Under the pieces are notes generated by a model. The model was not told the origin of the DNA and did no database searches. It saw only the letters and a program-made list of their open reading frames with translations. Both the position numbers and the translations under genes were made by a program. From contig OZ024740.1 in assembly GCA_964016885.1 (NCBI GenBank), positions 242,234,001 to 242,298,000 on the forward strand: a DNA stretch of 64,000 bases, given 5' to 3'. This DNA comes from Eledone cirrhosa. Lineage: Eukaryota. Shown here piece after piece: positions 27,026-28,728 of this stretch (positions within the stretch are counted from its first letter, which is position 1; each line of letters begins with the position of its first letter).

Positions 27026-27755
27026 CTTTGCATTCAACATGAGTTTTCTTTAGATGGTAGATGGTGACAGTCTTTTCTTCCCTAATATCTAGGATGAAAT
27101 GGATTGTCCTTGAGAGAAACAAGACAAGAACTTTCCTAGGTAATGTCAGTGTTGTGCTGTACAATATTTCGGCTGGTGTAGAACCGATTCCTTCTTTGAT
27201 GGTAGAACGAATCCCATAAAGGATAAAAGGCAGTATTCTAATCAGTTAGTTTTGTTTTGTAGGTATGAAGGTTTATATCAATTGTCGATAGAATTATTCA
27301 ACTATGTTCTTGATTACAGGATAGAAGCAGTTGTGTGCGCCCGCTTACAATATAGGAGTGTTAATTTTGTGAATAGATATAATTCGAATTGATGAGCGTT
27401 ATCTGTAGTGATTGTAGCGAGTGTGCCAAGACATGAAGTTCAGTGTTGCACTAGAGACTTGGTAATTGTTTCTACGGTGATATAAAGCAGAGGGGTGGCT
27501 TCAGCCAGCCCTCAGAGAAAATCATTCAAAAGGAGTGTGAAATGTTGAGATGTGGGGAGCGCTCCTATGATACATAATATATATACATATATATATATAT
27601 ATATATATATATATATATATATATATATATATATATATATATATATATATATATATATATATATATATATATATATATATATACATTATGAAGAGAGAAG
27701 AAACATTTAGATATAATTAGTAATAAAATGTATCATACCTAAACTGCTCCTAGAT

Positions 27756-27845
27756 TCCTCGACTACGTAGTTTCGTGGCATAACCAAAAACAATACATCA
27801 TAAAGATATAGAGTTTTTGCGAGGTCTGCCGACTTATCAAGAGGA
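27756..27845 (-). ncRNA. Type I hammerhead ribozyme, U3-A8 core
   Basis: Minus strand: tcctc-TTGATAA-gt(c)ggca..tgccac-GAAAC-tacgta-GTC-gagga; palindromic ACTACGTAGT. Confidence 0.88.
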
Positions 27846-28348
27846 TACCTCGTTTTACTAGCTTCAAGAACGCGTCTATATGATGTGAGAAAGAATCCCA
27901 AAAGGCGGAGGGGGAGATAGTCACGTGATACAACGGTCAAGAAACGGAGCTAAGCCTCTTATAACCCCGAAGAAAATACCACGGAGGCGGAGGGGGTATT
28001 TATATCGAAGCCGTAGAAGAGGTGGTGAAGGAGGCGAGAAGTATGAGTAATGGCAGCTTTCCAGCAGTCACCACACTTCAAAGATTACTCGACCAGAGGG
28101 AGTTATGAACAATATATTTAGAAACACACAGATACATGCGGACACACACATATACATGAATGCATCCACATCCAACCGTGAGTTAATGGTGCCAACCTTA
28201 CCGATGTTGCTCTATGAATGACTGGGACAGACCAATCCGGTTGAATTAGACTGAACCAGTATCAGAGCTAAAAGTACATTATGAAGAGAGAAGAAACATT
28301 TAGATATAATTAGTAATAAAATGTATCATACCTAAACTGCTCCTAGAT

Positions 28349-28438
28349 TCCTCGACTACGTAGTTTCGTGGCATAAACAAAAACAATACATCATAAAGAT
28401 ATAGAGTTTTTGCGAGGTCTGCCGACTTATCAAGAGGA
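28349..28438 (-). ncRNA. Type I hammerhead ribozyme, U3-A8 core (second copy)
   Basis: Core and stems identical to 27756-27845. Confidence 0.88.
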
Positions 28439-28728
28439 TACCTCGTTTTACTAGCTTCAAGAACGCGTCTATATGATGTGAGAAAGAATCCCAAAAGGCG
28501 GAGGGGGAAATAGTCACGTGATACAACGGTCAAGAAACAGAGCTAAGCCTCTTATAACCCCGAAGGTCACTACATATATATATATATGTGTATATATATA
28601 TATATATATATATATATATATATATATATATATACATATATATATATATATGTATATATATATATATATATATATGTATAAATATGTATATATATATATA
28701 TATATATAGATCACTACATATATATGTA

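Follow-up and report, generated by a model that had tools for sequence, protein, structure and literature searches.

The window that we analysed, a 64,000-nt stretch of an Eledone cirrhosa contig, carries at 27682-28565, on the minus strand, a one-armed retrozyme insertion of 1.49 tandem units (unit positions 382-593, then 1-593, then 1-79). The first-pass annotation had described near-identical direct repeats of about 290 bp, 593 nt apart, and these are real (27682-27972 and 28275-28565, 291 nt each, 99% identical, offset by 593, with 302 bp between them), but the repeat-spacer-repeat layout that it drew is better replaced by 1.49 turns of a 593-bp head-to-tail unit. The two repeats differ at three positions, none of them in the hammerhead core or in stems I-III. 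One full 593-nt unit, the predicted circular RNA, lies between the two predicted cleavage sites (27761-28353, minus strand), alongside a partial, 5'-truncated unit (28354-28565, minus strand, positions 382-593). The insertion ends at site A (unit position 79; 27682-27690, minus strand), a fixed 3' end at which reverse transcription of this copy would have started and which has an internal twin at 28275; site B (unit positions 242-246; 28108-28112, minus strand), the second fixed 3' end of the family, is internal here. The (TA)n setting proposed at first pass holds at the RNA 3' end, where the target occupies 27577-27683, but not at the 5' end, where the junction (28566-28730) consists of an inverted copy of the first bases of a neighbouring LTR, followed by TA-rich DNA. 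The first bases of that LTR, which begins at 28731, recur twice, inverted, within the TA-rich 28566-28730, and one of these copies forms the retrozyme 5' junction with a 2-nt overlap; the arrangement suggests that fold-back or templated synthesis took place at this end of the target. To the right of the retrozyme, the plus strand of 28731-32787 holds a degenerate LTR retrotransposon with protease, reverse transcriptase (RT), RNase H and integrase frames, and a second LTR-like copy, 81-84% related, lies at 45070-45596.

Each repeat contains, as had been claimed, a complete type I hammerhead on the minus strand, with both the motifs and the cleavage positions as first read: stem I TCCTC/GAGGA, the core TTGATAA, GAAAC, a palindromic stem III ACTACGTAGT and GTC, with predicted cuts after C 28354 in the upstream hammerhead (28349-28438, minus strand) and after C 27761 in the downstream one (27756-27845, minus strand). 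Helix II has a long hairpin extension and spans 59 nt, and the core has U3-A8 in place of C3-G8, a natural covariation known from the hammerheads of Schistosoma Penelope-like elements (PLEs) as described in PMC4209133. The topology is that of a type I and not a type III hammerhead; 5' ends are scattered round the unit, and the element has no true LTRs with fixed ends. As a monomer the hammerhead fold comes to -22.8, 1.1 kcal/mol above the minimum free energy of -23.9, while two copies co-fold as a double hammerhead at -61.5; the local fold z-scores of the two hammerheads are only -2.2 and -1.7. The covariance-model check that the first-pass annotation had suggested came back negative: Rfam gave no hammerhead at E<=1, and its 17 matches were without exception miRNA models on TA repeats. 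The 59-nt helix II is the probable reason for the miss. The whole motif is covered in 190 of 241 matches; core and stem positions are at least 98% conserved and the bulged C 93%, the 3' half being partly selected by the search pattern itself, and 94% of cells are paired. Covariation is weak (two pairs with two-sided change; 135 of 500 shuffles) because the stems hardly vary. An older subfamily, about 80% identical, keeps the core and stems (42/44 and 44/44 positions identical, against 431/549 and 434/549 elsewhere). This same relative had been considered as a coding partner and was rejected, being a subfamily of the retrozyme.

The element is multi-copy, with 7,488 exact matches of a 23-nt hammerhead pattern in the 3.0-Gb assembly and none for the reversed control. 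Extrapolating from the first 100 listed matches, which correspond to 50 places in 54 Mb, the family would comprise roughly 2,800-3,700 loci. Its copies are head-to-tail units with a period of 585-596 nt, dispersed in short arrays (median arm 565 nt) that reach 11.8 units. The longest arm seen (L271:1870-8846) belongs to an insertion with A>G variants on 13-14 segments across both arms. Units follow one another directly, with no RT and GIY-YIG open reading frame (ORF) between pLTRs, and no ATG frame round the circle exceeds 29 aa in sense or 38 aa in antisense; the copies are ORF-less tandems rather than truncations of a coding element, in agreement with the first reading. A tRNA-derived SINE was also ruled out, since a search for a tRNA-like head found no tRNA in four loci and the unit has no B-box match. 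The unit has a GC content of 42% and, as a predicted circle, folds at -166.7 kcal/mol (z -4.6 against 40 shuffles; antisense -124.0). The description of a young non-autonomous family stands for the young subfamilies, which lack an ORF and whose youngest copies are 99-100% alike; the copy in the window branches early among the recent subfamilies and not among the youngest (40-row tree, midpoint root). A TATA-like motif at unit position 350 is absent from its 5' piece. The family and its variants are also present in contigs of four runs from one study. A hot spot lies in a C run at unit position 322 (alignment column 336), where C/T differs within eight loci of the 593 subfamily. At one locus (L073:2773-6627) a complete two-arm insertion is present twice, 2,554 bp apart, likely through a later segmental duplication or as an assembly repeat, and this duplicate was excluded from the variant counts.

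Beyond its ribozymes, the family has a highly regular mode of ending. Among 50 position-ordered loci, 49 yielded 75 arms, 71 of which had their 3' end at site A (36) or site B (35), about 165 nt apart, and TA adjoined the 3' end in 70; in the replication set, 124 of 128 arms ended at A or B. Other TA-like stretches within the unit are unused as 3' ends, so microhomology alone does not set the two sites. The scattered 5' ends are denser at unit positions 340-420 (19 of 75 in the 361-420 bin), perhaps through RT pausing at G/C-rich hairpins. Inverted two-arm insertions combine one arm ending at A with one ending at B in all 32 classable cases of the position-ordered set (38 in all, six with one odd end, and one duplicated insertion counted twice) and in 48 of 49 classable cases of the replication set (two more being odd), or 80 of 81 across both sets; in the sole A+A case, from the replication set, the second end lacks TA. 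An apparent inverted target duplication at L002 and L119 was rejected, as it proved to be a neighbouring two-arm PLE.

With two fixed 3' ends, 5' truncation, an inverted arm and a microsatellite target, the retrozyme shows the integration signature of PLEs, and PLE machinery is the likely motor of its integration, given that the same two-end, paired pattern is seen in a coding GIY-YIG family of this genome and in data on an Anolis PLE. The earlier suggestion of a borrowed Penelope RT fits this signature, and we regard it as supported. The coding family, whose two 3' ends lie 57 nt apart, is represented by a 1,257-aa open frame (L315:2221-5991, minus strand); it has a minimal hammerhead and is very abundant (40,565 first-look candidates). 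Its assignment draws on RT motifs, a Cys motif and GIY-YIG, together with Pfam matches of parts, as the whole frame has no significant match in Pfam or PDB; by a motif described in PMC8557442, it would be of the Neptune/Nematis type. Both of its ends lie at (TA)n, and one of each was found in 5/6 and 3/3 places where both ends are visible. The Anolis PLE, as reported from in vitro work in PMC11167929, uses two internal RT starts, which define the Penelope "tail", with both strands cleaved and a dimer predicted. Across 1.48 Mb of loci the retrozyme unit shows no sequence similarity to this coding family, which among the many PLE families is the one that was examined in depth. Scanning 0.8 Mb for hammerheads turned up other motifs, none of them related to that of the retrozyme. 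Sampled coding copies, at best 95.8-98.6% alike, look older than the youngest retrozymes, in a sample that is biased by an old query.

A second regularity concerns the variants that distinguish one insertion from another. Read on the ribozyme strand, variants shared by all units of an insertion comprised 49 A>G against 30 T>C of 174 in the discovery set (p 6e-6 per site), whereas unshared variants comprised 20 against 45 of 327. The replication set (74 new loci with 76 insertions, 75 of them with a full unit, chosen by likeness to two queries) gave 53 A>G against 11 T>C of 86 shared variants, and 15 against 32 of 225 unshared ones, and the excess stays when query alleles are removed (A>G against T>C, 31 vs 8 and 21 vs 3). 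The 5' neighbours of the 53 shared A>G changes are U (31), A (17), C (3) and G (2), matching the preferences of ADAR (PMC3113232); on distinct sites the neighbour test is of modest strength (for 5' U/A, p 0.033; for 3' G, p 0.0016), with six recurrent columns counted twice. Six A>G sites, at unit positions of about 277, 340, 357, 436, 537 and 547 in the 591-nt subfamily, are found again in both young subfamilies (p 3e-6), and their combinations are not nested. Shared A>G changes were on both arms in 27 of 53 cases. Strictly private variants are few (A>G 9 and 5, T>C 5 and 2), and because shared variants may derive from source loci outside the sample, their counts are not counts of independent events. 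Fixed changes along the subfamily ladder (9 A>G against 3 T>C, with 8 G>A) are only suggestive of the same bias. ADAR genes are present in the host genome, the ADAR2 being 95% identical to an Octopus protein cluster.

The units of an insertion, moreover, resemble products of one molecule. Subfamily-diagnostic columns disagreed between units within arms in 40 of 3,504 comparisons (1,654 expected) and across arms in 14 of 1,388 (652 expected); an apparent mixing at unit positions 114-117 was a gap-placement artefact that disappears on realignment. Comparing the distance within a locus with that to the nearest other locus was uninformative, the former being smaller in 31 of 56. The 593-nt RNA that the first-pass annotation had envisaged fits this within-insertion sharing of variants as a single template, and we consider it likely that both arms were made by repeated copying of one unit-length RNA, which was itself likely circular and likely ADAR-edited. 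We accordingly hold, with good if incomplete confidence, that the element is an ORF-less non-LTR retrozyme whose predicted hammerhead-cut 593-nt unit is likely circularised, edited by ADAR and rolled into (TA)n by a borrowed Penelope-like RT/endonuclease. A tandem copy would be transcribed, and its hammerheads, likely acting as a dimer, would release the unit, which would then likely be ligated to a circle and likely edited. The PLE protein would cut both strands of (TA)n, one of the resulting DNA ends would prime at A and the other at B, both on a single RNA molecule, and each cDNA would pass the ligation junction and continue for a varying number of turns, up to about 12. The two cDNAs may then join tail to tail, or one may join the target directly to give a single arm; the copy in the window would be such an arm, primed at A and stopped at unit position 382. 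Two published observations count against this model: the Anolis PLE, assayed in vitro, used unprocessed RNA and could do without its hammerhead (PMC11167929), and, in a preprint (bioRxiv 10.64898/2026.07.22.740005), eight of nine Xenopus retrozyme dimers showed no cleavage.

Other templates would account for parts of this record. Single-molecule sharing is explained as well as by a circle if the template was a cleaved linear monomer, its ends held together by stem I and protein, with the RT jumping from the 5' end to the molecule's own 3' end at each turn; such jumps, however, ought to produce stops or extra bases, whereas 405 of 406 unit junctions have the exact length, 109 of 121 arms cross the cut site, and only one of 121 5' ends falls within 5 nt of it, where about two would be expected if they were uniform. 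Mussel retrozyme RNAs are, in the account of PMC7229834, mostly circular. We regard a linear monomer as improbable. Exact junctions and the lack of stops at the cut site would follow equally if a long source array were transcribed into a linear multimer that stayed uncleaved, the template proposed for the Anolis PLE, which used unprocessed RNA in vitro (PMC11167929), and arrays as long as 11.8 units do exist. Units of a multimer would be edited separately, however, for which the strictly private rate predicts 40.3 and 18.7 unshared A>G changes, yet only 9 and 6 were seen, at background; arrays copied in this way could only shrink, and private variants are common to all units in 32 of 62 loci. 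We therefore think a multimeric template very improbable. Least credible to us is that monomers or pLTR pieces insert and are later expanded by unequal crossover or homogenised by gene conversion, the satellite model of the 2026 preprint. Units are indeed homogeneous within arrays, and partly shared variants (18 in the discovery set, 12 in the replication set) do show some homogenisation or duplication after insertion. Synthesis of more than a unit at insertion is nevertheless needed to account for fixed 3' ends combined with random 5' ends, for dispersed short arrays, for copies of one unit and a fraction, and for inverted arms that differ in their 3' ends yet have their variants in common (of 38 variants fixed in the longer arm, 35 are also on the other and 3 are arm-discordant).

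A different doubt leaves the element and its single-unit template as described but attributes the A>G changes to transcription-linked germline mutation at source loci, to polymerase error or to RNA-to-RNA replication instead of ADAR. In keeping with it, A>G sites are not over-represented where pairing is predicted (p 0.18 and 0.49), and replication from RNA to RNA has been raised for mussel retrozymes in PMC7229834. The preference for 5' U/A and 3' G, the recurrence at the same six sites and the accumulation of several A>G changes in single insertions (7 of 11 departures at one locus) speak against it, as do the coding PLE copies, where A>G is not in excess on the sense strand (4.4 vs 6.8 per kb in 34 segments from 27 loci, a signal diluted by the greater age of these copies). 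We judge this origin unlikely, though worth some weight, and retain ADAR editing of a circular unit as the preferred reading. Extending it, we lean towards a wider proposition, with distinctly more reserve: that a circular RNA of the germline undergoes ADAR editing before its rolling-circle reverse transcription by a Penelope-type enzyme that primes from both cut strands at two fixed sites of one RNA, so that edits would become heritable DNA changes and drive the evolution of the element, and that the same reaction would explain the tail and the inverted arms of PLEs generally.

Non-LTR retrozymes are already known, and what is new here is genomic evidence on their mechanism. Like the animal elements described in PMC7229834 and in the preprint (bioRxiv 10.64898/2026.07.22.740005), the present family consists of ORF-less head-to-tail repeats with one type I hammerhead per unit, a GC content below 50%, thousands of copies, a self-paired unit and coexisting PLEs. 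It differs in its 593-nt unit, longer than the 170-400 nt given for invertebrates (593 does fall within the preprint's 51-972 range), in its U3-A8 core and 59-nt helix II region, and in combining fixed twin 3' ends in (TA)n with a single-template A>G record, which the accounts in these two sources do not describe. The main texts of both lack cephalopods (the preprint's invertebrates being three insects and one coral), although their supplements may list some. In PMC7229834 the template is proposed to be circular, and editing is mentioned solely as one possible source of heterogeneity. With the GIY-YIG PLEs of Neptune/Nematis type, as presented in PMC8557442 and PMC11167929, the retrozyme shares 5' truncation, partial tandems, an inverted second arm, an optional tail bounded by two internal RT starts that lie downstream of the hammerhead, and microsatellite targets; it lacks their ORF, its tail measures about 165 nt, compared with the published 30-40 nt and the 57 nt of this genome's coding family, and it uses one start site per arm in vivo, whereas PAc in vitro showed no difference in start site between strands (PMC11167929). 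The U3-A8 hammerheads of Schistosoma PLEs (PMC4209133) have the same core covariation and a palindromic stem III suited to dimer cleavage, but they are minimal, heterogeneous and mostly single, unlike the retrozyme's nearly invariant tandem ribozymes with a full helix III and a long helix II. In plant LTR retrozymes, as summarised in PMC7229834 and the 2026 preprint, two hammerheads likewise bracket a non-coding RNA of the 600-nt class; those hammerheads, however, are of type III, and the elements have true LTRs, PBS/PPT, a 4-bp TSD and a Gypsy partner, in contrast to the type I, circularly permuted tandems without a fixed 5' end seen here.

Neither the A+B rule nor a record of editing in retrozyme arrays turned up in our literature search, which likewise gave nothing relevant on octopus hammerhead ribozymes, on retrozymes with ADAR, on A-to-I editing in retrotransposition, or on editing together with rolling-circle copying of Penelope elements. 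The origin of tandem retrozyme and Penelope insertions is debated, with a circular template proposed in PMC4209133 and PMC7229834, an uncut multimer favoured from in vitro work (PMC11167929) and local satellite-like expansion proposed in 2026. Because the A>G marks act as barcodes of single molecules, genome sequence alone can separate these models, and it favours one unit copied many times. The A+B rule likewise allows the tail and the inverted arms of Penelope elements to be modelled concretely, the comparison of shared with unshared variants can be repeated in any long-read assembly that contains retrozymes, and the record as a whole points to a route by which RNA editing likely enters the genome sequence of an animal.

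Several further elements accompany the family. At another locus (L067:5992-6922, plus strand), a different tandem repeat with a period of 310 has a CTGATGA-type hammerhead in each unit, with seven matches in the locus; this is a second retrozyme family. Within the window itself, LINE fragments with RT and zf-RVT lie at 91-2255 (plus strand), fragments of a PIF1 helicase at 17991-19614 (minus strand) are likely a Helitron remnant, and another hammerhead-like motif of the CTGATGA type, at 38497 (plus strand), is related to motifs of PLE-rich loci.
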